From Okamejei kenojei (Eukaryota), in the NCBI GenBank assembly GCA_035221665.1, contig CM069150.1, forward strand, positions 35,278,001-35,342,000: a stretch of DNA of 64,000 bases. Direction: 5' to 3'. A model generated the notes under the pieces. That model saw only the letters and a list, made by a program, of their open reading frames with translations, made no database searches and was not told the origin of the DNA. Each line of letters begins with the position of its first letter. The stretch's first letter is position 1. This document shows, one piece after another, positions 4,911 to 63,324 of this stretch. Both the position numbers and the translations under genes were made by a program.

Positions 4911-5039
4911 GAAGAAGGGTCTCGACCCGAAATGTCGCCTATCTCTTTCGCTCCTTAGATGCTGCTGCACCCGCTGAGTTTCTCCAGCTTTTTGTGTACC
5001 CTCGATTCTCCAGCATCTGCAGTTCCTTCTTTAAAAAAA
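4911..5039 (+). mobile_element. Penelope-like pLTR fragment (subfamily B) with 14-bp TSD
   Basis: Starts inside the hammerhead (GAAGAAGGGTCTCGACCCGAAATGTC). Flanked by AAAGAATCAGGGAA at 4897-4910 and 5040-5053. Confidence 0.85.
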
Positions 5040-7159: not shown

Positions 7160-8222
7160 TGCTGGTACCCCTCAGGGTTGTGTGTTCTTCCCTGCTCTAC
7201 TCCTGTACACCCATGACTGTACAGCCAAGGACAAGGCCAACTCAATCTTATGGTTCACCAATGATACGACCAATGTTGGCCGGATCTACAGCAATGATGA
7301 TACGATGTAAATGAAAGAGATCTAGAAAACCTGTGTAATGGTGTCAGGACCTTAATGTCAGCAAGACTAAAGAGTTTGGTTATTGAGTAAGAAAGTAAAA
7401 GATAAAAACAACTCTCTCCTCATCAATGGATCTGGTGGTATGTCTACAAGATCTTCTCGAACTTCTACAGCTACACTTTAGAAAATATTCTGACAAGATG
7501 CATCTCAGCCCGAAATGGGAACTGCTCCGCTCCTAACCATCTGAACCTGCAATGAGTGGTGAGCGCAGCTCAGCCATCACAGGCTCGCCACTTCCTTCCA
7601 TTCAATACATCTTGACAGGGCATTGTATTGAGGCTGGAAGTATCAGCAAAGATGCCCGGTCACCTTGGCCAGTCCCTTTGTTTCTCTTATACCTTCGAGG
7701 AGAAGATACAGGAACTTGAAAGCTTAGACATCTAGACCTAGGCACAGCTTCTTCCCCAATGCTATCTGACTTCCAAACCAAGCAGTGTAGGAAAGAACTG
7801 CAGATGCTGGTTTAAATCGAAGATAGACACAAAATGCTGCAGTAACTCAGCGGGACAGGCAGCATCTCTGGAGAGAAGGGTCTCGACCCGAAACGTCACC
7901 CATTCCTTCTCTCCAGAGATGCAGCCTGTCCCGCTGAGTTACTCCCAACATTTTGTGTTTATCTTCCAAACTAAGCATCTCTTTCACACCATGAGGTGCT
8001 GCAGTGTACTTTTAACTCTGCCTCATTGGTTATTATGTTACTGTACCTTAATATTATTTTACACTACTAGGTCTTTGCATTATAATTTGCACCATTCTGC
8101 TCTTTTTTATACTGGTTGCATTGACTATTGTATTTATCATTACTGTATGTATACTGTTTACTCTCTGCTTTATATCAACAATGAATTTAATTGTGCTCTG
8201 GTAAATATCACAATAAACTAAT
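7160..8222 (+). mobile_element. Degenerate Rex1/Babar LINE (RT remnant to 3' tail)
   Basis: Frame-shifted GTPQGCV...LYTHDCTAK...(D)DTT RT motifs at 7160-7300, the Rex1 C-terminus at 7600-7770, and ACAATAAACTA at 8209-8220. Interrupted by a pLTR. Confidence 0.7.
7785..7966. mobile_element. Inverted Penelope-like pLTR unit
   Basis: Fold-back with the junction just 5' of AAGGGTCTCGACCCGAAACGTC. Flanking repeat CTTCCAAAC(C/T)AAGCA at 7770-7784 and 7963-7977. Confidence 0.85.
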
Positions 8223-8638: not shown

Positions 8639-9076
8639 GGTGTACACAAAAGGCTGGAGAAACTCAGCGGGTGCAGCAGCATCTAAGGAGCGAAGGAGAT
8701 AGGCAACGTTTCGGACCAAAACCCTTCTTCAGACTGATGGGAGGTGGGGGAGGCGGGGAGAAGAAAGGAAAAAGGAGGAGGAGGAGTCCGAGGGCTGAGG
8801 GAGAGGTGGGAAGGGGAGGAGACAGCAAGGGTTAACAGAATTGAGAAAATTCAATGTTCAAGCCCAGAGGATGCAGACTCCCCAAGCAGAATATGAGGTG
8901 CTGTTCCTCCAACTTGCGGGGTTGCTCACTCTGGCCGTGGAGGAGGCCCAGGACAGAGAGGTCGGATACGGAATGGGAGGGGAGTTGAAGTGCTGAGCCA
9001 CCGGGAGGTCGGGTTGGTTATTGCGGACCGAGCGGAGGTGTTCGGCGAAACGATCGCCAAGCCTCCGCTTGGTCTC
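8639..9076 (-). mobile_element. Penelope-like element 3' part (GIY-YIG endonuclease end plus pLTR)
   Basis: ETKRRLGDRFAEHLRSVRNNQPDLPVAQHFNSP (GIY-YIG C-terminal half) followed by a pLTR with hammerhead. An 11-bp TSD AAAAGATGTTG lies at 8628-8638 and 9077-9087. Confidence 0.9.
8705..8732 (-). ncRNA. Minimal hammerhead ribozyme motif
   Basis: CUGAAGA-A-GGGUUUUGGUCC-GAAAC-GUU. Stem II contains G-U pairs and the cleavage triplet is GUU. Confidence 0.55.
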
Positions 9077-9503
9077 AAAAGATGTTGCCAGGACTCGAGG
9101 GTCTGAGCTATATTCGGAGCACAGGAGGGTGATTGGTGATCTTATAGAGGTGTATAAAATCGAGAGGAATAGGTAGATGCACAGAGTCTCCTGCCCAGAG
9201 TAGGGGGGTCGAGGACCAGAGGGTATAGGTTTAAAGTGAAGGGGATATGATTTAATAGGAATCTGAGGGGTAACTTTTTCACACAAATGGTGGTGAGGTG
9301 TAGAATGAGCTGCCGGAGGACGTAGTTAAGGCAAGGATTATTGCAACAATTAAGAATCAATTCGACAGGTACATGGATAGGACAGGTTTAGACCCAAACC
9401 CAGGCAGGTGGGACTAGTGTAGCTGCGACATGTTGGCCGGTATGGACAAGTTGGGCCGATGGGCCTGTTTTCACGCTGTATGACTAGACTCTACGACTCT
9501 ATT
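9077..9503 (+). mobile_element. CR1/HER1-like LINE 3' fragment
   Basis: GDLIEVYKI-type motif, TRGYRFKVKG, and tail GGGCCGATGGGCCTGTTT..CTGTATGACTAGACTCTA. Confidence 0.85.
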
Positions 9504-10134
9504 TATTTGCCTAGCAATTGACTGGAAAATTTAACTCAGTATAAACAATGCTCAATAGCATTTTGCTATTGATTTTGAAGGCTCAATTGATTTTAAGTGC
9601 AGCAAAAATAAAATATAAAGATTAAAGCCTCTACTTGCCAGAAATGCAATTACAGTTAGAGCACGCTGGTTGCAATAATATGCATACAATGTGCTGCTGA
9701 GCAAATCTAACCTAAGAGATATCATGGATAAAACTGCAGAAACACAGCACCCAAGAGAAGGAAGAAAAACACATGAGTGAAGCAGGAGGGAATGAGTACA
9801 ATAAAACTAAAAGAAAAACAGATAACAAGGGCAGCGAGGAATAAATACAAAGAAATAACTTTGGAAAGAAAACAAGGAAATGGAACAACCTCTATTATGA
9901 AGAAAGACATGCAGATGTGAAAAGGAAACGATATCTCTGGTGGAAACTCTTGACAGAGGCTCCACTCCAAGTTCAGGTCCAAGCAAAACCATGGAGACCA
10001 AGCTTACAGTGTTAAATTAAGTTAAAGCAAGACATCAAATCAGGCAAGAATTTGTGATGTGCTGATGTAGGAATGCTATATGGTTATTGCTGAGCGAACA
10101 TACAACCAGCTTTGCTGTAAAACATGATGCCTAA

Positions 10135-10655
10135 AGGGCCTGTCCCAACAGCAAGCGATTGCATGCGTCTAGCGCGACCAAACGTGGTCGCTTGAGGCGT
10201 ACGGCTGCGCGGGGCCAGTTCCACTTCGAAGCGCGGAGGCGTATGGAGTTGTGCGGGGCTGGTCCCGACATCGCGCAGGGCTCCGCAAATCCTGCACTGT
10301 TCGAAAATTCTGCGCGCCAACAGCCTGTCGGCCCGCATTGAGTGCGTACGCAGGGTCTTGACAATGTACGCAGCGTCTTGACGTCGTACGCCTAGCGCGT
10401 GGCGTCGTGCGATGATGTCACCGCCCAGCGTGCCTTTGAGTGATGACGTCACTGCCCAACGCCGTGCGACGTCCAAACTCAGTATGCCCGCCTCCTGCCC
10501 AGCTGATTGGTGAGTATGATGTCAGGACCAGCCCCGCACAACTCCATACGCCTCCGCGGTTCGAAGTGGAACCGGCCCCGCGCGGCCATACGCCTCAAGC
10601 GACCACGTTTGGTCGCGCTAGACGCATGCAATCACATGTTGGTGGGACAGGCCCT
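10135..10655. mobile_element. PIF/Harbinger-like palindromic MITE (CpG-rich, young)
   Basis: TIR AGGGCCTGTCCCA / TGGGACAGGCCCT, with about 135-bp near-perfect inverted arms (10135-10272 vs 10518-10655). Confidence 0.85.
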
Positions 10656-11315: not shown

Positions 11316-11941
11316 CATAGAAACATAGAAAATAGGTGCAGGAGGAGGCCATTTGGCCCTTCGAGCCAGCACCGCCATTCATTGTGATCATGGCTGATCA
11401 TCCACATTCAATAACCCGTGCCTGCCTTTCCCCATATCCCTTGATTCCGCTAGCCCCTAGAGCTCTATCTTTTAAATTCATCCAGTGAATTGGCCTCTAA
11501 TGCCTTCTGTGGCAGAGAATTTCACAAATTCACAACTCTCTGGGTGAAAAAGTTTTTCCCATCTCAGTTATAAATGGCCTCCCCTTTGTTCTTGGACTGT
11601 GGCCCCTGGGTCCTGACTGCCTCATCATTGGGAACATTTTTCCTGCATCTAGCTTGTCCAGTCTTTTTATAATTTTATACGTTTCTATAAGATCCGCTCT
11701 CATCCTTCTAAATTCCAGTGAATATAAGCCCAGTCTTTCCAATCTTTCCTCATATGACAGTCCCGCCATCTCAGGGATTAACCTCGTGAATGTACGCTGC
11801 ACTGCCTCAATAGCAAGGATGTCCTTCCTCAAATTAGGAGAACAAAACTTCACACAATACTCCAGATGTGGTCTCACCAGGGCTCTGTGCAGAAGGACCT
11901 CTTTACTCCTATACTCAAATCCTCTCGTTATGAAGGCAAAC
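11316..11941 (-). mobile_element. CR1 LINE 3' fragment
   Basis: ORF RPHLEYCVKFCSPNLRKDILAIEAVQRTFTRLIP...LERLGLYSLEFRRMRADLIETYKI, with a (TTTCTATG)n tail. Confidence 0.9.
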
Positions 11942-13144
11942 TTTCAGTAGAATGCACAAAACCATGTTAATGAACATCCAGAAACCCATGAGCTGGTATA
12001 ACACCTAGTAATATATCTACTTTTAGCATGCTGTTTTGTGGGCCTTAGATTAAACATTGGCCAATGACAACTAGATTTCGAGAGTGTTGAAATATGGCTT
12101 TGGTAGCGATGATCAGGTGAGCTCTGAAATTCAGTTCCTCCCAGGGCCAAAGGTTTTAAGTTGTGTCTCTATTAATGTAATTATGTTAGCAAATAGTTTA
12201 TAAACGTAGAAATCTAAACAAGCACCTTGGCAAATTATTTAATTATTTTCACAGTTTTGCCCGAGGCAACCTGAGAATTTGGCAGAGCGTATAAAGTAGT
12301 TCTGGTTTCTATTCCAGAATAAATTATCCCAAGTGAAGGTCTGTTAAGTAAGAAATAAAATTATTCAAGCCTTTTACCACACATGTGTTTGAGACAGATT
12401 AAATAATCAAATTTGAAACAGAAATTTCAGAAATGGGTCTATGGAATCTCTTGTTCTCGGATGTGTACATTATACATATTATCCAGCAGGGGTCTGTGAG
12501 TGTGAGCCAGAGAGTGAGAGAGCTAACTGCATAAGGAACCTCAATCCGTACAACAAACCAAACAGAACAATTAAATGTGGACTCAGCAAGAAACTGTGCT
12601 CCCAAAATAGGTGAAGCTGAGCCATCCTGTCAAAGCGAAGGGATTTCATCCTCTCACTAATGCAGCAAAGACATATAAACATACATACATTAGCTTACAT
12701 TGCCTTTCTCGGCGCATAAGAGACAATAAGAGAGAGAGACTCATAATATACTGCAGGGTTAATGACAGTCTCCAGACTTTCCCATAATGACAGGTTGTCG
12801 ACAGGTTATTTACTCATTTTCCCCATAATACGTTGTTAGAATTTCATTTTCACTGAATCTGACTGTGAGACCGTGCTGTTCTCTGAAGTAACATTTCTCA
12901 ACAGATGGAGCTAAGACACGCTACTTAAATACATAATACTGCCAAACTTACAAGGTTCACAATCACGTAATTAGCTGTAATTAAGGAACAGTAAGTGAAA
13001 AATAATTTACAGTTTAGTTTATTTATCACATTAGCTAGTGTCAACTTTTGCTCACAGAACAGCATGAATCCAATTTTTTTTTCTCTCCTTTCTACTGTGT
13101 TAATTTAAAATGTAAGAGATTGAATAAAGTGAGACCTACAGTTA

Positions 13145-14743: not shown

Positions 14744-14960
14744 AGATAGGCACAAAATGCTGGAGTAACAGGCAGCATCTCTGGAGAGAAGGAATGGGTG
14801 ACGTTTTTCTGATCGAGATCCTTCTTGAGTCGGATGAAGGGTCTCTACCGGAAACGTCACCCATTCCTTCTCTCCAGAGATGCTGCTTGTCCCGCTGAGT
14901 TACTCCTGCACTTTGTGTCTATATTCGGTTTAAACCAGCATCTGCAGTTCCTTTGTTACA
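14744..14960. mobile_element. Inverted Penelope-like pLTR unit with 16-bp TSD
   Basis: Fold-back centred near 14825. Perfect TSD CATGTGTGTACACTTA at 14728-14743 and 14961-14976. Confidence 0.9.
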
Positions 14961-15326
14961 CATGTGTGTACACTTACTGGTTTAAAACTGTTCCGATCAC
15001 CAGTGCTTTCCCGCTACCTCAGCATCAACAGCTGGAATGGGAGGATGCAGTGTGCAGTAGTAGACTGTAACAAGGCCACATACGGTTGGGAATGTGATTT
15101 GTATCAAACAAACATTTTGCATATAAATCCTTGAAAATGGCAGTGCATGTTGTGAAGTGTTAATGGAACATAATAGTTTCATAAATAAAAGCACAGGGTA
15201 CAGGTGTAAGGGGATTATGTCAAACTATTGTAGTCCATACCTGGAGATTGCCTCCATTTCTAGTTACCGTGCTTTTGGACCTAGAAAGAGCAGGTCTGGG
15301 AGCATCTCCAGAGAACATGGATAGGT

Positions 15327-15624
15327 TGGCACAGTGGTGCAGCGGTAGAGTTGCTGCCTTACAGCGACTGAGACCTGGGTTCAATCCTGAGTAAGGGTGC
15401 TGTCTGTACGGAGTTTGTACGTCCTCTCTGAGACCATGTGAAGTTTCTCTGGGTGCTCCAGTTTCCTCGCACGCTCCAAAGATGTACAGGTTTGTAGGTT
15501 AATTGACTTTGTTAAGTTGAAAGATTGTCCCTAGTGTGTAGGATAGTGCTAGTGTATGGGGTGATCCCTGTTCGGACTCGATGGGCCGAAGAGCCTGTTT
15601 CCATAATGTATCTCTAAAGTCTAA
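15327..15624 (+). mobile_element. HE1-type V-SINE (near full length) inserted in a pLTR remnant
   Basis: TGGCACAGTGGTGCAGCGGTAGAG (A box), GGTTCAATCC (B box), V-domain and CR1-like tail. pLTR pieces lie at 15288-15326 and 15627-15662. Confidence 0.9.
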
Positions 15625-15856
15625 AAATGTGATGATTCGATATGGGATCCTTCTTCGGACTGAAATATCCTGTAAAATTTCTCCACTAGCATATGGTTTG
15701 GGACCAGTAGACACAGATTAGTATTGGGCAAAGACACAGGAGGGATGATGTTTATGCAGAGAGTTGTTGTGATCTGGAACTTGTGACCCATGGCTAACCC
15801 AAGACAACCAAAATCAATTGGATGGCATTGAAGATATTCCTCGACAAAATCAGAAA

Positions 15857-16262: not shown

Positions 16263-16465
16263 AGGAATCAGTAGAAGATAGGTGTGTTTTTTGGCTGATG
16301 TCAATGGAACTGAATTTCAGAAGGGGAGCAATTGCGATGTGTTGTGTGTCGGGTGAATCTGGTTGCAAACGTTGGGTAAAAATGGGCACAATGTAAATCA
16401 ATGTCAGGACCGATTTCCAAGGCTCAGAATGCCTGTGAAATGGTCATCCAAGTTGTTACATTTAT

Positions 16466-16753
16466 TTGTTTAGTTTGGAGATAATGCACGGAAACAGGCC
16501 CTTCAGCCTACCAAGTCCGCATCAACCAGCGATCCCCGTACACTTACACTATCGTACACACGCTAGGGACAATGTACAATTATACCAAGGCAATTAGCCT
16601 ACAAACATGTAGGTCTTTGGAGTGTGGGAGGAAACCGGAGATCGCAGAGAAAACCCACGCAGGTCACAGGACAAACTCCGTACAGACAGCACCCGTAGTC
16701 AGGATGGAACCCGGGCCTCTGTTGCTGTGAGGCAGCAACTCTGCCACTGTGCC
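16466..16753 (-). mobile_element. HE1-type V-SINE
   Basis: Head, V-domain and tail all present in reverse orientation. Confidence 0.9.
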
Positions 16754-16776
16754 AAATCAGACTATTTTTCAATCAT

Positions 16777-16991
16777 GTTGTTAAAGAAGGAACTGCAGAT
16801 GCTGGAGAATCGAGGGTTACACAAAAAGCTGGAGAAACTCAGTGGGTTCAGCAGCATCTAAGGAGCGAAGGAGATAGGCGACGTTTTGGGTCGAGACCCT
16901 GAAGAAGGGTCTCGACCCGAAACGTCGCCTATCTCCTTCGCTCCTTAGATGCTGCTGCACCCGCTGAGTTTCTCCAGCTTTTTGTGTAACC
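16777..16991. mobile_element. Inverted Penelope-like pLTR unit (subfamily B) with 15-bp TSD
   Basis: About 85-bp near-perfect inverted arms meeting at the hammerhead. TSD CTATTTTTCAATCAT at 16762-16776 and 16992-17006. Confidence 0.9.
16899..16926 (+). ncRNA. Minimal hammerhead ribozyme motif (intact core)
   Basis: CUGAAGA-A-GGGUC-UC-GACCC-GAAAC-GUC. Stem I is lost at the inversion junction. Confidence 0.6.
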
Positions 16992-17611: not shown

Positions 17612-17651
17612 AACTCTACCCTATGGCAAGAATTTGATGTCATGATAGATC
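17612..17651 (+). repeat. 40-bp exact direct repeat, copy 1
   Basis: AACTCTACCCTATGGCAAGAATTTGATGTCATGATAGATC, identical to 19197-19236. Confidence 0.95.
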
Positions 17652-17712
17652 CCATTCCTTCTCTCCAGAGATGCTGCCTGTCCCGCTGAGTTACTCCAGC
17701 ATTTCGTGTCTC
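17651..17712 (+). mobile_element. Penelope-like pLTR fragment starting at the predicted cleavage site
   Basis: CCCATTCCTTCTCTCCAGAGATGCTGCCTGTCCCGCTGAGTTACTCCAGC. Confidence 0.85.
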
Positions 17713-22491: not shown

Positions 22492-22811
22492 TTTTAGTTG
22501 TAGATATTAGTTAAAAATATAGCGAGGAAACAGGCCCTTCGGCCCACCGAGTCCACACCGACCAGCGATCCCTGCACATTAACACTATCCTACACACACT
22601 AGGGACAATTTACATTTATAAAATGCCAATTAACCTCCAAACCTGTACGTCTTTGGAGTGTGGGAGGAAACCGACGAGTTCGGAGAAAACCCATGCGGTC
22701 ACGGGGAGAATGTACAAACTCCATACCGGCAGCACCCATGTTGGGATCGAACCGGGGTCTCTGGCGCTGCAAGCGCTGTAAAGCAACTCTACCGCTGCGC
22801 CACTGTGCCCG
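22492..22811 (-). mobile_element. HE1-type V-SINE, full length
   Basis: Minus strand GGGCGGGCACAGTGGCGCAGCGGTAGAGTTGC...CGGTTCGATCCC...V-domain...GGGCCGAAGGGCCTGTTTCC. Confidence 0.9.
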
Positions 22812-24670: not shown

Positions 24671-25009
24671 TAGTTAAAGTAGGAAATGGTGCTGTGGGAG
24701 TACAGATTTAAGAGGGTGGAGCGATTGTAACGTGAGTTTGTAGATCTGCTTCTGTGGCTAACACGCCAATAGTCGCCGAAGACTAAACCTGACAATAGTA
24801 ATAAACCAAACCAAAACTTAGCACAAAACGCAACAGTTTTACAGGCCTCAAGACGTAATTTTATCAAGAACCTGATTGCTTCCTTGTGTGCCATTAGCAC
24901 ACTTCCAGATTTTATTCTGGGTGATCCGCATTCACACAAGCCGGAAGGTTGAACCATGCCCTCTGACATTACTGTCGCAAAGTTATCCAACCATGAACCA
25001 CACTTAGGA

Positions 25010-25667
25010 CATGGGCCGCGGAACCGGGGGGGGCTGGGGGGGCTGCAGCCCCTCTACGTTTTTGGCGAGACATACTTCATAACCCAAAATTATCCAGCCC
25101 GCAGGCGTATTTTTCTCTTCTTCTGAGGACCTCCGACATCCAGAATCTCAGAACAAGCACACACTGAGCGTGGTAAAACCAAAGATCATAGAGCGGAGCA
25201 CCGCCCCAAGGATCACAGAGCCGATGCTCCATTCAATGATCTTTGGGCAGCGCCACAACCAGCTGCCCCCCCCCCCCCCAAAACCCTCCCTCCCCTCTGC
25301 ACAACGGCCAATCACAGTGCAGTTCACAGTCGGGATATGGGGTAATGAATGAAGCGCTGTGATTAGCCGCCGAGCAGAAGGGAGGGAGGGTGGGCCCCGA
25401 GCGAGAGAGAGAGAGAGTCAGTCGGCCCCGAGAGAGAGAAGGTCGGGCACCAAGAGGGAGGGAGAGAGGGAGGTGGGGGGATAGGGGATATATCCCCCCA
25501 CTGTTTGAGTTGGGGTTGTGGCCTGCATTATCCACCAGTTTTTGGAGGTTGAGCAAGAACAAAAAATAATAATTGTGCCACCCTCCCCACCGCTCGATCG
25601 CTCCGCTCCCTCACCGGGTCAATGAACGCTCAGCCCCCCCACTTTCAAAAACTTTCCGCGGCCCCTG
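25010..25667. mobile_element. hAT-like non-autonomous DNA transposon (MITE)
   Basis: 14-bp TIR CA(T/G)GGGCCGCGGAA / TTCCGCGGCCCCTG with subterminal GCT(G)CAGCCCC motifs at both ends. No clean 8-bp TSD is visible. Confidence 0.6.
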
Positions 25668-25864
25668 TAGGGTACAAGACTCTCAGACTGAAACAGGCTT
25701 CTGCACACATTGGTGGAAGCCTGACCCCATCTCATCTCCTCCCAGGATATCAGAGGCATCCATCCTCTTCACGTAGGTTTGCCTTTAAGTCGTTTACAAT
25801 CTTCACTCCCTCCATCTCCTGCTCCTGCCAATGATCATGCACAACGCCTCTCCCAAAATGAACC

Positions 25865-25865
<1 letters not shown>

Positions 25866-25917
<52 letters not shown>
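25866..25917 (+). repeat. Poly-C homopolymer (about 52 nt)
   Basis: Direct observation. Confidence 0.95.
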
Positions 25918-26777
25918 ACCCTTGTGTTGCTCACTGCACCCTCCAATTGCCTCCCTACCGGACTCCGATCCTCGTTAATATCTCCAGCCGATTCCAGCCA
26001 CAGACTCTGATCTGAACCTCTGTTTCCCTCCCCTAAACCAAGATCCCCTCTAAATCCTGCTGCACCTTACAATCTATAGTTCAGCTGTCAGCAGGTCTTT
26101 ATACGTATGCAGTATGGTAGCCTTATTCTATCATGTTCACAACCCTGGCCTTGCATTGTGATAACACTTTGATTCTCATACCGTGGCACAACACCATGTT
26201 ACCTCAAGGTTTTTCAGGCAGGGTACCATTTTAGCCCTTGTTGTTGTAACATTGCTTTAATTGTCTTAATATTGTACAGGACGAAAGTCCATTCTGAATC
26301 CGTTTTTCTTATAGTAATAACTCATTTTTTTCTATTTAAAATCCACTAAAATGTGAAAGACATGCAATACTATTGTGGTCTCTGATCTAATAATGCATTA
26401 TCCAGTTTGGTGGTTATCAAAGGTATCTACCAGAAGTGGGCTCAGGTAGAACGTATGTTGAACGTAAACCCAAGAGTATTGCACATATTCAGCAACTCCC
26501 TGGAATTTGAGCGTTGTAGCAATTGGGGCCACACACTGAGGCAGTTCCCCACAAAGAGACTTTTTTGGACTGAGAGGAGGTTGTTACTGAAAGAAGAATG
26601 ACATTTAAAAACAAAAAAGTTTACTTTTAACGCAGAAGTTTTGTTTTAAACCAGGATAAGCAAAATTAAATAAGTTCAAGATTATTACATAGTTTAGGAT
26701 TTTGCATTATTCAAGAAATTTTTGATAGTTGGATGTTCATCGCTGTTATACTGTCAAACCTACAAAAAACAGCCATC

Positions 26778-27164: not shown

Positions 27165-27250
27165 GAGTCTGATGTTTGGTCTTGACCTGAAACGTCACCC
27201 ATTCCTTCTCTCCAGAGATGCTGAGTTACTCCAGCTTTTAGTGTCTACCA
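27165..27250 (+). mobile_element. Penelope-like pLTR fragment
   Basis: GTCTGATGTTTGGTCTTGACCTGAAACGTCACCCATTCC. Confidence 0.75.
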
Positions 27251-28465
27251 AGGGTGTGTTACACAGGTAGGAAAGAGAGACAAAACTAGTTATCCCTGAA
27301 CTAAGATACACAGCTATAATTCATTGAAGTTTACGATTTTATACCCAACTATACTTTGTTATCACTCCCTCCATTTTTTTTTTAAATGCTTTGAAATTGT
27401 TTTATTTTTCAGTTTACATTGACATTTCCAGGTCTCCGTGTACTTCTTTCATCTGATTTGAATTGTCCTTTGAAAATATTCCAGAAGATTCCCTGACTTT
27501 TTTTATTAGGTGGGGGGGGGGGGGGGAAGGCCTGTAATCGTTATTTCCTTCAGTTTTTACTTTTAATTTTGTGTTTGTACATCAGCCAGAACAAATAAAA
27601 ATGTTACTTGTATTTAGTGTCTCTTTCACCACTGCCAGCTCCTCCTTCCCCATAGATTTCTTGATCATGTTCATCTTTCAAACCAAACTTCCATCTTTGT
27701 CCATTTTGTGATACTAATATTATTATGTTGAGATAAGACAAGAGGCAGGTATGAATGAAAAGAAGAGATGAACAGATTTGTGTCTACTTTGTGAAGTAGA
27801 TTGTCCTAGCTTATGACACATGAAATGCATTAAGAACCCATATCCATTTAGGTACCATCTATAATTGTCTGCATTTTGTGGAGACAATATTCTTTCCATT
27901 TTCTTTCAAGTTCAAAGAAAACGATTCAAAGATACATAAAACATGCATCCTCTATCACTGCATAGTGTTGCAATATAGAAAAGCCAGTTGATCTCAGTAA
28001 TAAAACAATGGATATTATTGGTTGCTTAATTGCAAAGAAACAGAAGCATTGGTGTATTGGTGCACTGCTTATAGCCGAGAGAAAAGAGAACTATTGGTGA
28101 TTAAAACAGTATCAAACAACAGGGATCTAAAATGATATGTTCTTCGCATTAAACCACAAGGCTGCAGTAAGTGCCCAGTCTGACTTCTCCAGTATTGAGC
28201 TAATATATGTAGTTTAGTTTTTAAATGATGGTATTCTGATAAACAAATGTGTCATGGAATCACACAATGTCAAAGAATCTATTTAATTCATCTAAAGAAA
28301 CTCTTCATCTCCGTGCTTTCTTTGACAAACTATTTTTTGCCAATTGGCAAAGAGGAGATCTTCCTGCAGTTCATCACAATGGGGGAATCAAGAAGCCATT
28401 CCTGAAGAGATGTTCAGCTTACTCTGGACAACAGTTGAGCAGGAACCTGGTTCATAAATTCATAA

Positions 28466-28799
28466 TGGCCCAGTCCCACTGTACGAGTTCATTCAAGTGC
28501 TCTCCCGAGTTTTTAAAAAAAAAAATCAAACTCGTGGTAAGCACGTAGAATGAACGTAGCGGGTACGTCGGAGCTCGGGGACGCCTCTTAGCGGCTCGTA
28601 ACGCTAACGGCAGGTACTCGGGAAGACTCGTTAACGGCAGGTAAGCTCGGGAAGCCTCGTGAGGATTTTTCAACATGTTGAAAAATGTCCACAAGAGCCC
28701 CGAGTACCAACGAGTGGCCATTACCGCAAATCTCCGAGTTCGAATCAGGGCAAACTCGGGAAGAACTCTTGAATGAACTCGTACAGTGGGACAGGGCCT
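28466..28799. mobile_element. PIF/Harbinger-like MITE with TAA TSD
   Basis: TIR GGCCC(A/T)GTCCCACTGTACGAGTTCATTCAAG, with TAA at 28463-28465 and 28800-28802. Removing the element restores the CR1 tail TTCATAAGTTCTAGG. Confidence 0.9.
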
Positions 28800-29195
28800 T
28801 AAGTTCTAGGAACAGAATTAGGCCATTCGGCCCAAAAAGACTACTGCGCCATTCAATCATGGCTGATCTATCTTTCCTTCTCAACCCCATCACCTGACTT
28901 CTCCCCATAACCCATGTTACACTTACTGATCCAGAAGAATCAGTCGATCTGTGTCTTAAAAATATCCATTGACTGGGCCTCCACAGCCATTTGTGGCAAT
29001 GAATTCCACAGATTCACCACTCTCTTGCCTAAATAAATTCCTACTCATCTCCTTTCTAAAGATACATCCTTTTATTCTGAGGCTATGGCCGCTGGTCCTA
29101 GACTCTCCCAACAGTGGAAACATCCTCTCCACATTCACTCTCTCCAGGCCTTTCGCTATTCAGTAAGTTGCAATGAGGTGACCCCTTGTCCTTCT
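28800..29195 (-). mobile_element. CR1 3' fragment
   Basis: NVERMFPLLGESRTSGHSLRIKGCIFRKEMSRNLF. Confidence 0.85.
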
Positions 29196-29491
29196 ACATG
29201 GAAGTGGCGGTATGATGTGGGTTAACCCAACTGCCTCCTCTCCCAGAGGTAGAAGTGGGATTGGGTAACCCAACTGAAAACTGGGAGGATAACCTACATG
29301 CAGAGGACATTCATGATCAATGGAAGAAAGAATAGTTTTGAAAGTTAAAAATAATCTTTCAGCTCAGAAAAGGTATCTGTTGGAGAGGCAGAGGAAACGT
29401 GAACATGGGTAGAAGACCCAAGAAACACCAACTGTTCCCTTGAGCACAATCTCAAGATGGTGGCTAAAATTTTCACATCAATCAGTCTTAC

Positions 29492-29594: not shown

Positions 29595-29915
29595 CTCTGA
29601 TACCCCTTCCTCTCCGTCCCTCCCCCACCCAAGTCATTGTACTAGGTTCAAAGTCCTTGTCGAGTCTCATTGTTTATAACTCATTTTCACCTAGCCCACA
29701 GCTAACAATGGCCTGCTTCCTTTATCATCGTTACTTTCTTGCATATCTTTCATTCATTTATCCTATAATCTCTCCATATTACCGTCTATATCGCTTGTTT
29801 CCCTTTCCCCTGACTCTCAGTCTGAAGAAGGGTCTCGACCCGAAACGTCACCTTTTCCTTTTCCCAAGAGATGATGTCTTGACCCACTGAGTCACTCCAG
29901 CCTTTTGTGCTTATC
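29595..29915 (+). mobile_element. Penelope-like 3' region/pLTR
   Basis: Pyrimidine-rich pLTR body followed by CAGTCTGAAGAAGGGTCTCGACCCGAAACGTCACC. Confidence 0.85.
29822..29849 (+). ncRNA. Minimal hammerhead ribozyme motif (intact core)
   Basis: CUGAAGA-A-GGGUC-UC-GACCC-GAAAC-GUC, with palindromic ACGU stem III and a short stem I (GU/AC). Confidence 0.7.
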
Positions 29916-32017
29916 CACCATCAACTAGAGGGGTTGTTTACAGTCCAGCCGCATTCAGCCTTTAAATCATGAATGGTTTTATCATCTTCGACTCAGGAGG
30001 GGTGAGCGAGCCTTCAGCAAATAGATTTAGTCATCCAGCTTTAATGGTTTCAGCAAGACGAGAGAAGTTGCTGATTGGCTAAACATAGATGATTACATCA
30101 GGGAAGGCTATTAGTAATTAATGAAATGCTGGCAGTAATTGGGAAAGTGTAAGGGGCCTGTAATGGAAGTCATCCATTCTACGCATTCTTCCTAGACGTG
30201 GAACAATCCCTCACTATCCTTATGATCTCACATGCTTATCCATGCAAATCTATCTGACAGGAAGGTACATCTCTGTCTCCTTAATTGGACAGAATGGAGT
30301 TGTTTATGGATATCGCAGACATTTAGGCCTCAGTAGGGGGTTACTCAAAAAACTCGTTAGCAAAAGCCACCCTAACAATCCAGTCAGATTCCTTCCCCTG
30401 AGCTCGGAGTGTCCAGTGAAATGGTGTTTCAATCAGACATTAATTTCTAGAATAGAGAAGGAGAATATCTCCAGCAGGCAGGAAGCCCAATCAATGGACT
30501 TGATTTACAACTTTTCATATCCCTGCTCTTTATCAACACTGAGAGGTTTTATATAATTTGAACCTTGTAATGTTCCCATGTGAGAAATGGGTTATGAATC
30601 ATGCAGAGCAATAAACTATCTTATGTGCACTGGGACAGTGTGTGATGTAGTGGAAAAATGTATTCAGTATTGTGTAATCCCAAGCCCCATCATTTAAAGA
30701 GACAGTAATATTTTTTAGTGACCCACTGTAAGTCAGAGTTATCAAAATTCAAATCTATGCAGCATACCTTTTTAGCCCTCAGCTTCTAATATTTATGAGA
30801 TGCAGTAATGATATAATTTTGTGCTCATTGTGGTGGGAAACAGTCCCTTTGCACACAATGCTAGTTAAATATTCCCAGGCCAGTTATGCCCGCAGTCAGT
30901 TCTAGGTAAAAGCTGGTGCCCAACCATGGCAGTCACTGACAAATGACTACGTTGAGTCAGGAATAGGTGTGGTCTGTGTTCAACCGGGCTGTGGCATCTG
31001 GAGCGTTTTACAGGGTTCTGGCACCTTGTCACTTTGAACAGTTTAGTTCTTGGTGAGCGCTCTGTCATCGAGGGCTTGATTCCTACATAAAGGTTTCCGA
31101 GCACTCCATCCATGGCATCAGTTAGCAAGCTAAGTGATCCTTACCGATGAAGTGCCAGAATCTATACCTCTTTCAGTACCAGCACGGGGAACAGCTGTTG
31201 AGAGCAGATAAATTCTCAATGGCTGTTCTCAATAGAAATTGCATTGAAATCTGAAAGACTGGAGAGATTTTCTAATCGCCTCCACTGACTGTTCATTTTC
31301 TTTTGTATTCCAACGTTCCTTGCTGGCTGCTTGTTTTCCCCTCCATCTCTCTATTTTGTTTACCTTCAATACTTTTTCCACTTTCTACCATTTTCTTTTA
31401 CCTTTTTTTTTCCTTATCGTATCTTATCGTGCCTCGTTTGATTTTGATTTTATTTTCCAGACAGTTTTTTTCCTTCATTGTATTTGTTTCGCCTATCTTT
31501 TTCTCTCCATTATCATTAAATGCCATCGTCTGTATTCTTATATATTAAATAAAAACACAGAAAAGGCTGGTTGCTATCAGATAGGAAAGAAATTATCCTG
31601 TTTTGGATATCATCTTTCATCAAAGCTCCCAGCGGATTCTGTTTATATTTCATGTTTCCAGATTTTTTTTTTTGTTCTGTATGTCCCGAACGTATACAAA
31701 TGGAACTCGTCTGTCAGCTATTTTTACAAAGACTCTAATCCATTTATTTTAAACGAGTTCATTTATTTTAAAAGGCTTGGCATCTTAGTTAAAGCTGTGG
31801 AGGAATTTCACTCTGCAAACGAGAGCACATTCGTTACTGGCTTCGGGCAGAACAATTTCAGCCGTTTTATCTCTGGAGTTTAATCTCTTTCCTATTTTCA
31901 AGCTGCAAATAATCACTAAAAACAGCGATGAATCATTTTGGGCAGCCGTACACCTGGCTACCCTCAAATCCTCCCCCTGATTTCAGTGCCAGGGCCCTGT
32001 CCATTGGCTGCTTCTTA

Positions 32018-32281
32018 GTGTGTTGGAAGGAACTGCAGATGCTGGTTTAAACCGAAAGTAGACACAAAAAAAGCTGGAGTAACTCAGCAGGCACAGGCAA
32101 CATCGCTGGAGAGAAGGAATGGGTGACGTTTTGGGTCTAGACCCTTCTTCAGGCCAGTCAGAAGGAATGGGTGACGTTTCGGGTCGAGACCCTTCTTCAG
32201 ACTGAAGAAGGGTCTCAACCCGAAACTTCAGCCATTCCATCTCTCCAGAGATGCTGCTCCAGCTTTTTGTGTCGATCTTCT
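32018..32281. mobile_element. Inverted Penelope-like pLTR unit with tandem hammerheads
   Basis: Two tandem minus-strand motifs (32125-32152, 32173-32200) and one plus-strand motif (32202-32229). Flanking repeat GCTGCTT(C/T)TTA. Confidence 0.85.
32173..32200 (-). ncRNA. Minimal hammerhead ribozyme motif (intact core)
   Basis: Minus strand CUGAAGAAGGGUCUCGACCCGAAACGUC. Confidence 0.7.
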
Positions 32282-37199: not shown

Positions 37200-38452
37200 G
37201 CAAGTTCGTAGTATGCTGGAAATGGTGAAATAGGTGGATAGGGTAATGCTTGCCGTCATAGGCTGAGGCATTGAGCGTAAGAGTTGAGATGTCATGTTAC
37301 AACTGCTCTAGGAGTATTGTGTATAGTTCTGGTTGCCAAGCTACAAGAAGAATGCAGTCGCATCTTTCTAAAGTGCAGAAAACATTCACATAGAAACATA
37401 GAAACATAGAAATTAGGTGCAGGAGCAGGCCATTCGGCCCTTCGAGCCTGCACCGCCATTCAATATGATCATAGCTGATCATCCAACTCAATATCCTGTA
37501 CCTGCCTTCTCTCCATATCCCCTGATCCCTTCAGCCACAAGGACCACATCCAACTCCCTCTTAAATATGGCCAACGAACTGGCCTCAACTACCTTCTGTG
37601 GCAGAGAATTCCAGAGATTCACCACTCTCTGTGTGAAAAATGATTTTCTCATCTTGGTCCTAAAGGACTTCCCCCTTATCCTTAAACTGTGACCCCTTGT
37701 CCTGGACTTCCCCAACATCAGGAACAATCTTCCTGCATCTAGCCTGTCCAACCCCTTAAGAATTTTGTAAGTCTCTATGAGATCACCCCTCAATCTTCTA
37801 AATTCCAGCGAGTACAAGCCGAGTCTATCCAGTCTTTCTTCATATGGAAGTCGTGCCATCCCAGGAATCAGTCTGGTGAACCTTCTCTGTACTCCCTCTA
37901 TGGCAAGAATGTCTTTCCTCAGATTAGGAGACCAAAACTGTACGCAATACTCCAGGTGTGGTCTCACCAAGACCCTGTACAACTGCAGTAGAACCTCCCT
38001 GCTCTTGTACTCAAATCCTTCACCGGGATGTTACTTGAATGGGGGGGCTTTAGTTACAGGAGAGATTAGATAGGCTGGCTTTATTCCCACAGGAACATTG
38101 GAAGCTGATCTTATTGATATTTATAAGATTGTGAGGGCATAGATAGGGTAGATGGTCAGAATTTTTTTCCCCAAGTAAGCGTGGCTAAGACTAGAGGGCA
38201 TAGTTTTAAGGTGAGAGGTGAGAAACCTAAAGGAGATCTGATCGGATAGTTTTTCACACAGAAGGTGATGATTGTAAAGAGATGCCAGTGGAGGTTAAGA
38301 AGTAGATACGATTGAAGCTTTTAAGAGGAATGGATAGGAAGGAAATAGTGGGATACGGGCCTAATGCTGGTAAATGGAATTAGCTTAGATAGCAGCATGG
38401 ACATTGAACTAAAAGGGCCCATTTTTGTGTTTTACAGCTATATGATGCTTGA
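37200..38452 (+). mobile_element. Old CR1 LINE split by a younger CR1
   Basis: GAGTATTGTGTATAGTTCTGG...GTGCAGAAAACATTCAC resumes at TTCACCGGGATG (38019) and runs to its tail near 38450. Confidence 0.65.
37390..38018 (-). mobile_element. Young CR1 LINE 3' fragment
   Basis: Uninterrupted 164-aa ORF YRVLVRPHLEYCVQFWSP...FFTQRVVNLWNSLP...IRGYG and a (TTTCTATG)n tail. TTCAC is duplicated at both ends. Confidence 0.95.
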
Positions 38453-43523: not shown

Positions 43524-43654
43524 TTTGTTGTTGTGGTTTTAGTCTAGAAGAAGCAACAAAACTCAAAAGGTTGAAGGATATTTTTATTTGTGGCTCGAGG
43601 TGTTACGGCATTTGGTGAAGTCCAGCCAACCTGCTTAGGAACATCCTAGACCGA

Positions 43655-43905
43655 GATAGTGTGGAGAAGATATTTACAGTAGTGAAGGAGTCCAAGACCA
43701 GAGGGCACAGCCTCAGAATAAAAGGCCATGCCTGTAGAATGGAGATGAGGAGGAATTTCTTCAGTCAGAGGGTGGTGCATCTATGGAATTCATTGCCACA
43801 GATGGCAGTGGAGGCCAAGTCATTGGGTATTTTTAAAGCAGAGATTGATAGGTTCTTGATTAGTAAGGGCGTCAAAGGTTATGGGGAGAAGGCAGGACAA
43901 TGGTG
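43655..43905 (+). mobile_element. CR1 fragment
   Basis: ESKTRGHSLRIKG..MEMRRNFFSQRVVHLWNSLP..FKAEIDRFLISKGVKGYG. Confidence 0.9.
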
Positions 43906-43944
43906 AAAAGACAGCCCTGAACCCTGTCAGTGTATTTGAAGTCA

Positions 43945-46959: not shown

Positions 46960-47235
46960 CGTTCTTTTAGGAAGGAGATGAGGAGAAATTTCTTGTCAGA
47001 GGATAGTGAATCTGTGTGATTTTTTTTGCCACAGAAGGCTGTGGAGACCAAGTCAGTGGATATTTTCAAAGCAGAGATAGATGCATTTTTGATTAGTCTG
47101 GGTGCCAGGGGTTATGGGGAGAAGGCAGGAGAATGGGGTTAGGAGGTAGAGATAGATCAGCCATGATTGAATGGTGGGGTAGACTTGATGGTCCAAATGG
47201 CCTAATTCTACTCCTATCACTTATGACATGAACAT
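46960..47235 (+). mobile_element. CR1 3' end
   Basis: TTTAGGAAGGAGATGAGGAGAAATTTC...GATCAGCCATGATTGAATGG...CCTATCACTTATGAC. Confidence 0.85.
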
Positions 47236-56214: not shown

Positions 56215-57300
56215 TTCAATAGACAATAGGTGCAGGAGTAGGCCATTCGGCCCTTCGAGTGAGCACCTCCATTCAATGTGATCATGGCTGTTCATCCACA
56301 ATCAGTACCCCATTCCTGCCTTCTCTGCCATTTCCCCTGACTCCGCTATCTTTAAGAGCTCTATCTAACTCTCTCTTGAAAGCATCCAGAGAATTAGCCT
56401 CCACTGCCCTCTGAGGCAGAATATTCCACAGATTCACAACTCTCTGGGTGAATTTTTTTTCCTCATCTCCGTTCTAAAGGGCGTACCCCTAATTCTTAAA
56501 CTGTGGCCCCTGGTTCTGGATTCCCCCAACATCGGGAACATGTTTCCAGCCTCTAGTGTATCCAATAATCTTATATGTTTCAATAAGATATCCTCTCATC
56601 CTTCTAAATTCCAGAGTATACAAGCCCAGCCGTTCCATTCTCTCAACATATGACAGTCCCGCCATCCCAGGAATTAACCTTGTGAACCTTTGCTGCACTA
56701 GCAAGAATATCCTTCCTCAGATTTGGAGACCAAAACTGGACACAATACTCCAGGAGTGGTCTCACTAGGACCCTATACAACTGTAGAAGGACCTCTTTGT
56801 TCCTATACTCAACTCCTCTTGTTATGAAGGCCAACATGCCCTGGGCTTTCTTCGCTGCCTGCTGTACCTGCATGCTTACTTTCAGTGACTGATTTACAAG
56901 GACCCCCAGATCCCGTTGTACTTCCCCTTTTCCCAACTTGATGCCATTCAGATAATAATCTGCCTTCCTGTTTTTGCCACCAAAGTGAATAGCCTCACAT
57001 TTATCCACATTAAACTGCATCTGCCCACTCACCCAACCTGTCCAAGTCACCCTGCATCCTCCTCACACTAGAGCAGTACCCCACTAATCACTGCCTGTCA
57101 TTCTGAAAGGGTTAATCCCTACTCTTTGTTTCCTGTCTGCCAACTAATTTTCTATCCATTCCAGTACCCTATCCCCAATACCATGTGCTCTAATTTTGCC
57201 CACTAATCTCCTATGTGGGACCTTATCAAATGCTTTCTTAAAGTCAAGGTACACTACATCCACTGGCTCACCCTTGTCCATTTTCCTAGTTAAATCCTCA
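56215..57300 (-). mobile_element. CR1 LINE with reverse-transcriptase remnant
   Basis: MDKGEPVDVVYLDFKKAFDKVPHRRL; QMQFNVDKCE..RDLGVLV..LYRVLVRPLLEYCVQFWSP. Contains internal deletions and frameshifts. Confidence 0.95.
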
Positions 57301-57458
57301 AAACTGTGTGTTCGGTCACAGAGAGCAACTCCAATTGAAATTAGCAATTCATCACAGTCTAGAAAATAAAATAATGTACCTTTGAGTTAATACGGAGTGC
57401 CTTTACAAGGTAAGTTATCAGCAGAGTTTCCTGGATGTGTTTTTCTGTTATATGTACA

Positions 57459-58420: not shown

Positions 58421-58494
58421 TTTCTGAAGTCCCGGGTTTAACTTCAACTTTCTAAATGTGGCTTTAATGAACATGAATATGTAACTGAAGCTTA

Positions 58495-58773
58495 GTCGTT
58501 AGAGATACTGCGTGGAAACAGGCCCTTCGGCCCACCAAGTCCACGCTGACCAGCCATCCCCGTACACCAGCACTATCCCACACACTAGGGACAGTATACA
58601 ATATTTACCAAAGGCAAATTAACCTACAAACCTGTACATCTGTGGAGTGTGGAAGGAAACTGGAGCACCCGCAGAAAAACCCACATGGTCACAGTGAGAA
58701 CGTACAAACTCTGCATCCATAGTCAGTTCTCTTTCACTGTAAGGCAGCAACTTTACCGCTGCACCGTTGTGCC
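58495..58773 (-). mobile_element. HE1-type V-SINE (internal deletion)
   Basis: Head, V-domain and tail in reverse orientation. Confidence 0.85.
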
Positions 58774-58960
58774 AACCCTTCACCGCTCTTCACCGTTGAG
58801 TCGGGAGACTGTCTGCTCTGGAGATTTAAAAAAAAAATAATTTTAATTGGCTGTAGCATTGATCCAGCAGATAAATAGACAAAGTCTCTCAGTCTGAGGC
58901 CCTCGCTCTAGTCGAGGGCCCTTAAGGACCAATTCTCCTGCCTGAATGTTAGCGTAGAAT

Positions 58961-59094
58961 AGTCCGAAGAAGGGTCACGACCCAAAAGGTCACCTTTTCC
59001 TTTTCTCCCGAGATGCTGTCTGACCCGCTGAGTTACTCCAAATTTTTGTGTCTATCTTCGATTTAAACCAGCATGTGCAGTTCCTTCCTACACA
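58961..59094 (+). mobile_element. Penelope-like pLTR fragment
   Basis: AGTCCGAAGAAGGGTCACGACCCAAAAGGTCACC...GAGTTACTCCA...GCAGTTCCTTCCTACACA. Confidence 0.8.
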
Positions 59095-60075: not shown

Positions 60076-60245
60076 ATGAGGTAACTTTTCCACGCCAAGG
60101 GTGGTGGGTGTATGGAATGAGCTGCCGGAGGACTTGGTTGAGGCAGGGACTGTCGCAACGTTTAAGAAACATTTAGACAGGTACATGGATAGGACAGGTT
60201 TAGAGGGATATGAACCAAACACAGGCAGGTGGGACAAGTGTAATG
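60076..60245 (+). mobile_element. CR1/HER1-like fragment
   Basis: GGGTGGTGGGTGTATGGAATGAGCTGCC...GACAGGTACATGGATAGG. Confidence 0.8.
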
Positions 60246-60920
60246 GGTCAGATAGCATCTCAGGAGAATACAGGTAGGGAACATTTTGGGTCTTGACTCT
60301 TTTTCAGACTGATTGTACAGGGGGGGGGGGGGAGGGGGGAGGAAAGAAAGCTGGAAGAGGGGAGGGGAGGGGCAGGTAGGTAGGCAGACAGGTGAGGAGG
60401 GTTATTTGATAAGGCAGATGTTTTTTTTAATAAATGGATTCAAGAGTTGCAAAGAATTGTGAAGCCTGAGGAGGGAATGTAGGTGGAAGGGGGGAAAATG
60501 TTTAGGTCTAGGTGGGGTACAGGGGGAATGGGGGTGCACGAGGGAATGAGGGGGAGAGTGTATGGAGGTGAGAAGGGAGAGTGTCATGTAGTTACCTAAA
60601 GCTGGGAAATTCAATGTTCGTACTATTGGGTTGTAACCTGTTGTTCCTCCAAAGCTCACTCTGGCATTGGAGGAGGCTCAGGACTGAAAGGTTAGCTTGG
60701 GAATGGGAAGAGGGGTTAAAATGGTTAGCAACCGGGAGGTCCTACAGGCCTTGGCCAACAAGTGCAAGTGGTCGACAAAACCGTTACTGAGGCTACGTTC
60801 GATCTTTCCAATGTACAGGAGGCTGCCTGATGCAGTAGATGAGGTTAGAGGAGGTAGACATGAAGTTCCGTCTCAGCTGAAAGGATTGCTGGGATCCCCT
60901 GGATGGAGGTGATGGAGACG
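60246..60920 (-). mobile_element. Degenerate Penelope-like element (GIY-YIG plus pLTR)
   Basis: Minus strand IQGSQQSFQLRRNFMSTSSNLIYCI...LYIG...RF...LPVANHFN, followed by a decayed pLTR. Confidence 0.7.
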
Positions 60921-61151
60921 GCGTAGGTACTGGGACTCAACAAAATTTGACAGAGACAAATCCACCTCCTCATGTAGATGGAAGGAGAAAAGTTAATTGC
61001 AATTTACGCTGCACAATTGGACTATTCTATCTCCTCCACTTTGCAGAAATACTTGAATGACTTGAAAGTGTTGTAGTATTAATGTAAATTCTCTTTATTT
61101 CCACAGTCTGAAACTGGGTATTGACTTACTCAGCTGCAGGGGAGTTGATGT

Positions 61152-61420
61152 GATAGACACAAGATGCTGGAGTAACTCAACGGGTAAGGCAGCATCTCTG
61201 GAGGAAAGGAAGAAGTGACGTTTCAGGTCGAGACCCTTCATCAGACTGAACGTCAGGGAGGGGCACACAAGAGGTATGGGAAGGTACAAAACAAAGCAGA
61301 GCCTGGAAATGTGGAGCCCACAACAGTCCAATGTTAGCTGGGTTGAGGTGTTAACGAAGGAAGACAAAGGATGAAATTAGCAAGAGGACTCGGGTGGGGG
61401 ATGGGCGGAGAGAGCGAATT
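61152..61420 (-). mobile_element. Penelope-like pLTR
   Basis: GATAGACACAAGATGCTGGAGTAACTC...GTGACGTTTCAGGTCGAGACCCTTCATCAGACTG. Confidence 0.85.
61217..61244 (-). ncRNA. Minimal hammerhead ribozyme motif
   Basis: AGU-CUGAUGA-A-GGGUC-UC-GACCU-GAAAC-GUC-ACU. Canonical CUGAUGA box, 3-bp stem I, and a G-U pair at the base of stem II. Confidence 0.65.
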
Positions 61421-62713
61421 TGTTCTTCATGGCCAAAAGTTCAAGGATGAACTGCTGTAACTTTTAGGTTGTTAATCCACTTTCCTCCCATGTTTAAGGC
61501 ATGACTCATGGTGAACAATTTCATTAGTGTCAACTGTCGGCCAGTTCTTCACCCTAATCACCATTTTTCATGTGCGAGTGGATAAAGTGTTAATAGGGTA
61601 TTTACACAATGTAAGCTTGCTTTCATCTCTAACTCTGATACTAGCTGAAGCTCTCAATATCATTACAATTGATAAAGCTAACACACAGGCAGATATGATT
61701 GTTTTTTTTTCACCTTAGGCTGTATACCTTTAAACAGCTATCAGGAGATCCATACAAACTCGATTCAAATCACCAGGCAGATATAAAATGATAGCTTTCT
61801 AAGGATAACACTGCACATCACAATGCGATTTTGAACATAAAAGCTAGATAAATTAAACACCAAGTTAAATAAAACAAAAATGCTGCCAACAAATTGCAAA
61901 TCATTAATTTTTTTTTAAGCTACCTTATTTCATTCTGCTATATTTTAAAGACAGTCTTTCAAAGCCAGTACAGGGACAGCAGTGCAAATATTTCACCACA
62001 TGTGACTGCATTTTAGACAGTCACATTAAGAGATCTAGCCTTAAGGTACAATAAATATAGTTTTTTGGAAAGCATAGAAGTATAAATTGCGTCATGCCCA
62101 GAGGGTGAAAGAATTCGGAATGTGGTTGCGATGGTAAGTATTTAAAGGACACATGGCTGTGTCCTTTAGGAAGAGTTATTAATGACTATTTCCAACTGTT
62201 CAGATGTGATGCATTTTAACTAGGTAGAAGTTATAGCGTTGTGTAGTGAGTAGATCTTTGAATACACATATTTTGTGTCAACACCAACATTTACTGTATA
62301 GTGGTTCTAACCCTACGTATAAAATTATTAAGCCCTGACATTGATTTAATGGCACAAAGTAAAATTAAGACACATCCTGCAGTTACAGCCTCAGCTCAAA
62401 TTTTGTACCTCCTTTTAGGTTAACATTGTAATACCATTTGATGTATTTCTTAATGGTATTTTGCATTTCCATGGCAGAGAGGTGTGGCGTATTTTAATTA
62501 ATTTAATTCGCAGCTTATGTTCGAAATGCTGTCAAGCAAGGATACGATTTTCCTAGTTTAACGTTTACCCAATAAATGAAAGAAACATTTAATAAACAGC
62601 AGATGCTGGAAACCTGAAATTAAAAAAAAAACTCAGCAGGTCAGGCTGCATCAGTGGAAAGAGAAACAGGATTAAACATTTGGTGAGAAGACCGCTTGAT
62701 CAAAATTAGGAAA

Positions 62714-62990: not shown

Positions 62991-63324
62991 AAAAGAGGGA
63001 AAACTAGTTTTAAGTTGCAGAGATGGTGAGAGATGGCTAGAACAAAAGAAGTATCTATGATAACGTGAGGTCGATATTGTCCTCAGATAAGTTGCAGACA
63101 TCTACCAGTCAGAGAGAGCAAAAGGTGGAACAAAATTGATGAGAATGAGGAGAGAGCACAGAGGCACATAAAAAGGGTGCAAAGTGCAGGGCTGTAGGAC
63201 ATGCCAACCAAGTTGGGATGTGTTAATGATGAGAGAAAAAACTGAGCTTGTATCACAGATAGATGACTCACTGCAGAAAAGGTAATTTCTGATAGACACA
63301 AATTGGACAGAGTATGCAGAAACA

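Follow-up and report, generated by a model that had tools for sequence, protein, structure and literature searches.

A predicted minimal type I hammerhead in the abundant 5'-truncated ends of a Penelope-like element of the skate Okamejei kenojei

Minimal type I hammerhead ribozymes (min-HHRs) have been reported in fish Penelope-like elements (PLEs) of the Xena, Poseidon and Neptune types (PMC4209133). The role of the hammerhead in PLE replication is called unclear in the available text of PMC8557442, which, together with the accessible portions of PMC3846280, gives an inverted copy and a one-sided tail of 30–40 bp as the PLE layout and ties a CX2-5CxxC linker to the Neptune and Nematis clades. 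For the Anolis Poseidon element PAc, the accessible part of Frangieh et al. 2024 (PMC11167929) reports that reverse transcription (RT) initiates internally in vitro, with starts approximately 85–92 nt past the hammerhead cut, that uncleaved RNA is the main insertion template, that the motif cleaves only with the element protein, and that RNA with a dead ribozyme inserts equally well. Animal non-LTR retrozymes, as presented in the available portion of a recent preprint (bioRxiv 10.64898/2026.07.22.740005), share a type I hammerhead and pLTR ancestry with the sequences described below and are present in the one chondrichthyan sampled.

Here we analysed a window of 64,000 nt from Okamejei kenojei (contig CM069150.1, positions 35,278,001 to 35,342,000), in which a hammerhead motif is present at 29822–29849(+), as an earlier note on this DNA had described. 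Its recurrence across the window, also claimed there, was confirmed with a 25-mer pattern (11 matches at no more than three mismatches vs none in 100 shuffles), with the 28-mer core (24 matches at no more than eight mismatches vs none in each of 10 shuffles) and with a profile built from 18 motif copies, which gave 43 hits (E < 0.01) at about 31 loci. The resulting density of one locus per 2.1 kb agrees with the previous estimate of about one piece per 2 kb, and the hammerhead family is indeed the most repeated of the window, with a self-BLAST depth of up to 43 compared to no more than 7 for longer repeats. This window density is far above the thousands of copies per genome counted in PMC4209133, and, unlike the skate, none of the species in Table S1 and Figure S3 of that paper is a cartilaginous fish. 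The ribozyme finding, ordinary in kind, gives a class known since 2014 a member from a cartilaginous fish. A literature search returned no paper on this skate family, which may already be listed in Repbase, Dfam or the supplements of PMC8557442 and the 2026 preprint.

The predicted minimal type I hammerhead of the 29.8 kb copy occupies 29820–29851(+), as judged by folding and by the consensus in Figure S3 of PMC4209133. It consists, in the order common to the family, of a 2-bp stem I (29820–29821 with 29850–29851), CUGANGA (29822–29828), one extra A (29829), a 4-bp stem II (29830–29833 with 29838–29841) closed by a 4-nt loop (29834–29837), GAAA (29842–29845), a palindrome (29845–29848) and GUC, with the predicted cut after 29849. 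The palindrome is four bases long, and stem III is possible only between two copies, i.e. in a dimer. The 5-bp stem II with a 2-nt loop proposed earlier had to be abandoned, since the fifth pair had a predicted probability of 0.00, leaving 4 bp and a tetraloop. The motif resembles the min-HHRs of PMC4209133 in its CUGANGA, the extra base before stem II, G10.1-C11.1, GAAA, the palindromic 15.2/16.2 positions without a loop 3, the NUH triplet and its occurrence as dispersed single copies. Stem I, about whose shortness the earlier note had rightly warned, comprises 2 bp, one of them U-A or U-G, and in two copies 3 bp, and so stands at the short extreme of the published range of 2–5 bp, in which 2-bp cases also occur (PMC4209133, Figure S3). 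An Rfam covariance-model search gave no hammerhead among its five matches at E ≤ 1, presumably because the motif is without stem III. Two further candidate features were rejected: an extended stem I, the third and fourth pairs of which fail in most window copies, and an open reading frame (ORF) across motif and tail, broken by a 1-base indel between subfamilies.

Among 19 core-spanning copies, CUGANGA, GAAA and NUH were complete and in order in seven (29822 among them), and four of these (8732, 29822, 32200 and 61244) keep every part, with stem II and the palindrome present and stem I no shorter than 2 bp. The five cores listed previously as intact do retain their core bases; however, in the copy at 16899, located where the two arms of an inverted pair meet, the 5' strand of stem I is missing and a single pair remains, and the copy at 8732 has a stem II weakened by two G-U pairs, together with a GUU triplet. 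The 61244 copy carries a G-U at 10.1-11.1.

Judged from its sequence, the motif is a min-HHR in the 3' end (pLTR) of an EN+ PLE, as had been proposed, because it is linked to an endonuclease, flanked by target duplications, found in inverted pairs with a one-sided tail and matched by the published consensus. At 8639–9077(−), a 5'-truncated PLE composed of an endonuclease end, a pyrimidine-rich pLTR and the hammerhead (core 8705–8732) is enclosed by one 11-bp target duplication. The link to a GIY-YIG endonuclease described earlier is thus real, although the ORF in question (8838–9076(−)) is a frameshifted C-terminal remnant. A second, more decayed PLE 3' end at 60244–60900(−) comprises a remnant at 60595–60900, a pyrimidine-rich pLTR and a broken hammerhead at 60280–60307; these are the two units of the window with a GIY-YIG remnant directly upstream of the pLTR. 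Both endonuclease-bearing copies are truncated, and no RT domain or full-length element of the hammerhead family was found in the window. The endonuclease stop codon at 60595(−) shares bases with a donor-like splice site, which, together with the pyrimidine tract and a CAG, outlines a possible PLE intron.

A 48-aa piece of the endonuclease produced 54 protein matches at E ≤ 0.001, and the remnant was 83% identical to a Leucoraja protein over this query. Ten homologues (eight from this search and two from another) with identified organisms came from Leucoraja, Rhinoraja, Hypanus and Rhincodon. The Pfam GIY-YIG model scored above the cut-off in one of nine homologues and weakly in four, and a Pfam search of five window pieces gave no useful match. 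An RT-thumb-like sequence was seen by eye to precede the endonuclease in homologues P0002 and P0055, and a CX2-5CxxC linker precedes the GIY-YIG motifs in 5 of 56 homologous proteins, a region that the window remnants do not cover. The element likely belongs to the Neptune clade; we infer the clade, as the window holds no RT of the family and the linker was seen in homologues only. Likenesses to Neptune EN+ PLEs, as far as the available parts of PMC8557442 and PMC3846280 describe them, include the C-terminal GIY-YIG domain, the cysteines between its motifs, the linker of the homologues, the pLTR, the inverted 5'-truncated copy and a 30–40 bp tail at one end. Unlike those elements, nearly all insertions here are ORF-less stubs of 100–250 bp, and RT does not occur in the window. 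Three skate gene models (P0004, P0008 and P0010), for instance a neuromedin-U receptor model, have the element's endonuclease end as their last exon and are probably annotation chimeras.

The whole 29.8 kb insertion spans 29630–29918(+), as delimited by contig depth bins and the ends of unique contigs (the 5' limit being approximate), and consists of about 190 bp of pyrimidine-rich pLTR, the hammerhead and about 65 bp up to a short 3' end, the tail being absent. Contigs of three other organism labels cross from the interior of the element into the sequence 3' of it and differ in about 1% of letters, so that the insertion is old, shared and predates their split. It is adjoined at 28453–29320 by a high-copy repeat of an unrelated family (depth 1.0–2.8 million in run X5).

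Across the window, 3' ends fall at two fixed places, approximately 65 and 100 nt past the cut, and the 35–40 bp between them constitute the tail. Of the 25 loci tested, 8 had target duplications scoring at least 8 (9–16 bp long), vs 0 of 60 random controls; the other 17 showed no clear duplication. Ten head-to-head pairs were identified, with the tail on one arm in eight, on both arms in none and on neither in two. Their junctions differ from pair to pair and sit in self-complementary patches of the motif: the pair at 7785–7963 is joined by 5-bp microhomology (15-bp duplication, one mismatch), that at 14744–14960 by a short palindrome at the 5' edge of the hammerhead (16-bp duplication, tail on the plus arm), and a pair of the second subfamily at 16777–16991 has a 15-bp duplication and a tail on the minus arm only. 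The unit at 32019–32279 combines two tandem minus-strand copies with an inverted copy, a tail on one arm and an 11-bp duplication with one mismatch; its copy at 32173–32200(−) is complete, and the second core of the tandem (32125–32200) is broken at G12. This unit, near 32.1 kb, is the one tandem case; close pairs are otherwise head-to-head, so that neighbours on the same strand hardly occur. If transcribed, the inverted pairs at 7785–7963, 14744–14960, 16777–16991 and 32160–32260 would form long hairpins; weak Rfam microRNA or hairpin matches correspond to inverted pairs, two of which gave microRNA-precursor matches below threshold.

Solo stubs are exemplified by 4911–5039(+), which starts 2 bases into the core and has a 14-bp duplication, by 27166–27247(+), which starts 3 bases before C3, abuts a 7-bp duplication and has a broken core, and by 58961–59092(+), which runs from −3 to the tail end, also with a broken core. 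The copy at 61150–61290(−) retains some upstream pLTR, a complete core and a 3-bp stem I.

For comparison of copies, 7 old, weak hits out of 43 were left out. Five of the remaining 36 extend into upstream pLTR. Among the 31 well-preserved copies without it, 25 have their first base somewhere from −7 to +10 relative to C3, ahead of the cut (the reference used for start positions itself ends at −7), and six short copies start further in. Starts at the cut site were seen in two copies, namely 17651–17711(+), the only well-preserved solo copy to begin within one base of the predicted cut, and the old weak hit at 22011. Contig ends from public runs that lead into unrelated sequence peak 3 bases before C3. 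Within the top six places per run, such a peak was present at 32203 in four of four runs (659–782 contigs, vs 1073–1111 at the tail end) and at the homologous position 8735 in three of four (17–28 contigs); its counterpart in the 29.8 kb copy is 29817–29823(+), where the A at 29819 is −3 of C3. The −3 position fits an initiator-like pattern, and a pyrimidine tract with its CAG also ends here in all five pLTR-bearing copies. Copies that span GUC imply templates of uncut or re-ligated RNA, and since most copies span the cut site, the templates were likely uncleaved; circular or re-ligated RNA would likewise yield cut-spanning copies.

The 5' edge of the hammerhead may be the RNA start of the element, in which case RT initiated internally would produce stubs of 100–140 bp. 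A more specific scheme, with an RNA start at an initiator at −3 of the core, internal RT initiation 100–140 nt downstream of it and run-off of the enzyme at the 5' end, is possible although doubtful; another option is that the boundary at −3 is caused by the enzyme stopping at structure. Should the −3 start be true, internal initiation would be naturally recorded in the genome on a very large scale and the hammerhead would double as a core promoter, which would explain the 2-bp stem I. The skate copies probably share with PAc two internal RT starts that define the tail and a mainly uncleaved RNA template, whereas no 5' end hot spot is described for PAc in the accessible part of PMC11167929; according to the same text the ORF of PAc starts in stem II, while the frame of the skate motif is not kept between subfamilies, and the two elements differ in clade.

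A pattern scan of metagenomes, using a pattern that included the core and not the stems, gave 13 loci, of which seven belong to one Poseidon-type family (L001, L002, L003, L005, L008, L009 and L012, with a Poseidon-type endonuclease upstream in L009), one (L010) is otherwise hammerhead-like and five look like chance matches. A scan of viral sequences gave one locus, identical in length and match position to L004, and no skate contigs were among the loci of either scan. The hammerhead of the Poseidon-type family has the same geometry as that of the skate with a different stem II, a 4-bp stem I and a UNCG-type loop, and its fold-back copies are joined at the stem I edge. That this family folds back at its own stem I edge favours a general structural or RNA-start cause of the boundary, and, given that L003, L008 and L012 fold back at the 5' edge of stem I, such a fold-back boundary may be general in PLEs. 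The motif at L010:926–991(+) is minimal-hammerhead-like, its stems I and II measuring 2 and 6 bp, respectively.

Collectively, the repeats are very probably insertions of a short hammerhead-bearing PLE end, probably copied from uncleaved RNA and since decaying, so that the ribozyme is probably inactive in almost every one. The element protein would nick the target and, as PAc does in vitro, start RT internally, at either of two points about 65 and 100 nt past the cut. Copying would then pass the intact GUC and usually end at the 5' edge of the hammerhead, either at the RNA start or at a structural stop of the enzyme, and the self-complementary patches of the motif could give rise to the fold-back junctions, presumably through fold-back priming. 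Selection would keep the hammerhead only in master copies, where slow cleavage may take place in a dimer, probably aided by protein.

The pattern of decay was compared across the 36 copies. Non-CpG core sites were off the majority in 14 of 237 cases (5.9%) vs 95 of 1281 (7.4%) at comparable downstream sites (p = 0.49), a downstream rate from which 16 subfamily-diagnostic columns had been excluded by eye; with these columns restored it rose to 218 of 1800 (12.1%). CpG sites were off the majority in 62 of 246 cases. Copies decay without sparing the core, and subfamily differences mostly avoid it; the contrast of 12.1% with 5.9% fits selection on masters and weakens a pure 'no difference' reading. 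In a test of stem pairing, 74% of cells pair vs 58% when shuffled and 19–38% when slid. This pairing test used 17 rows (13 window copies and 4 of the 7 Poseidon-type loci), in which stem II is closed by G10.1-C11.1 with an extra base after position 9 (85% of cells paired); the compensatory changes come from two families only, amounting to about one event per pair.

A different reading holds that the motif never cleaves in this lineage and is a vestige retained for another role, as a promoter, a splice acceptor or a site bound by protein. In all five pLTR-bearing copies a pyrimidine-rich tract and CAG end one base before the core, an arrangement similar to that in Drosophila virilis, where an intron ends at helix I (PMC4209133), and both the donor-like site over the endonuclease stop at 60595 and the 2-bp stem I would be in keeping with such a function. 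However, splicing to this CAG gave no convincing joint among the best 15 of 43 candidates, and stems I of 2 bp are found in published PLE hammerheads (Figure S3 of PMC4209133). In addition, the common variants among contigs aligned to the 8732 copy stay within what a hammerhead permits (position 17 is C or U, and the stem II variants are U-A or U-G), the invariant core bases being hit by none of the best 40 of 78 variant rows, and the distant Poseidon-type family has the same geometry with compensatory changes. We therefore consider loss of all cleavage function unlikely.

Approximately 300,000–360,000 contigs per run map to a stretch of 6.5 kb in which another repeat is also present, and summed contig depth over the hammerhead repeat in run X5 was 1.4–3.7 million vs 29–77 in most unique bins, figures that do not represent copy number. 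A very high-copy PLE with fixed ends lends itself to a genome-wide test of cut vs uncut templates and of the RNA start, and the same material to a test of how inverted pLTRs and tails arise, which are open points of PLE replication. Ends that are fixed on both the 5' and the 3' side, together with target duplications, would also suit a self-propagating non-autonomous family, SINE- or retrozyme-like, with its own transcription start and mobilised in trans, possibly via circles, the more so as animal retrozymes derive from pLTRs. Retrozymes, however, are tandem units with a hammerhead in each, at least in the available text of bioRxiv 10.64898/2026.07.22.740005, whereas the skate copies are solo or head-to-head with one two-copy tandem and with junctions that vary between pairs, and circles of a retrozyme would have the cut site, not −3, as their boundary. 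Moreover, depth in run X5 was of the same order over the endonuclease region (2.8–6.4 million) and the hammerhead region (3.7–17 million), suggesting that protein-coding copies are common. Independent propagation of the stubs is accordingly quite improbable.

Returning to the reading of decaying insertions from a PLE end, folding predictions are consistent with an idle ribozyme. In 12 of 12 tests (four window copies in three contexts each) the active double hammerhead lay 15–40 kcal/mol above the best fold, on energies that ignore Mg2+, tertiary contacts and proteins, and the first stem II pair had a probability of no more than 0.05 in eight of eight longer contexts. The corresponding gap was 5.6–13.5 kcal/mol in the Poseidon-type family, which is the better candidate for activity assays. 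An exon scan of the window found no convincing host gene. The expectation of the earlier note that very many potential self-cleavage sites would be seeded in introns is unsupported, because few copies are complete (4 of 19), the core decays like its flanks, the active fold is unfavourable, close pairs are head-to-head with same-strand neighbours nearly absent, and no host gene emerged. Although the four copies keeping all parts, the locus density and the repeat depth in run X5 mean that complete copies must be many genome-wide, it is highly improbable that cleavage of host pre-mRNAs by the dispersed copies reaches a relevant frequency, considering the 2-bp stem I, the poorly formed stem II, the lack of a convincing gene in the window, a stem III that forms only with a partner copy in the same orientation, the inactivity of monomeric and low activity of dimeric min-HHRs in PMC4209133, and the failure of 8 of 9 Xenopus retrozyme dimers to cleave, as given in the available text of bioRxiv 10.64898/2026.07.22.740005.

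Several other repeats were observed in the window. Remnants of another retrotransposon lie at 11316–11943, 37397–38030, 43619–43906 and 56219–57386, the last of which includes a match (57177–57338) to RT-like sequence in P0002; we take these remnants to be ends of CR1/L2-type LINEs. Dispersed repeats of 260–300 bp, a SINE-like size, with up to seven overlapping matches each, were found at 15319–15625, 16465–16754, 22507–22809, 46962–47226, 58489–58777 and 62709–62993. Finally, two segments are CpG-rich: that at 25000–26000, a possible promoter, includes a long simple repeat, and that at 10084–10655 holds a 138-bp direct duplication.
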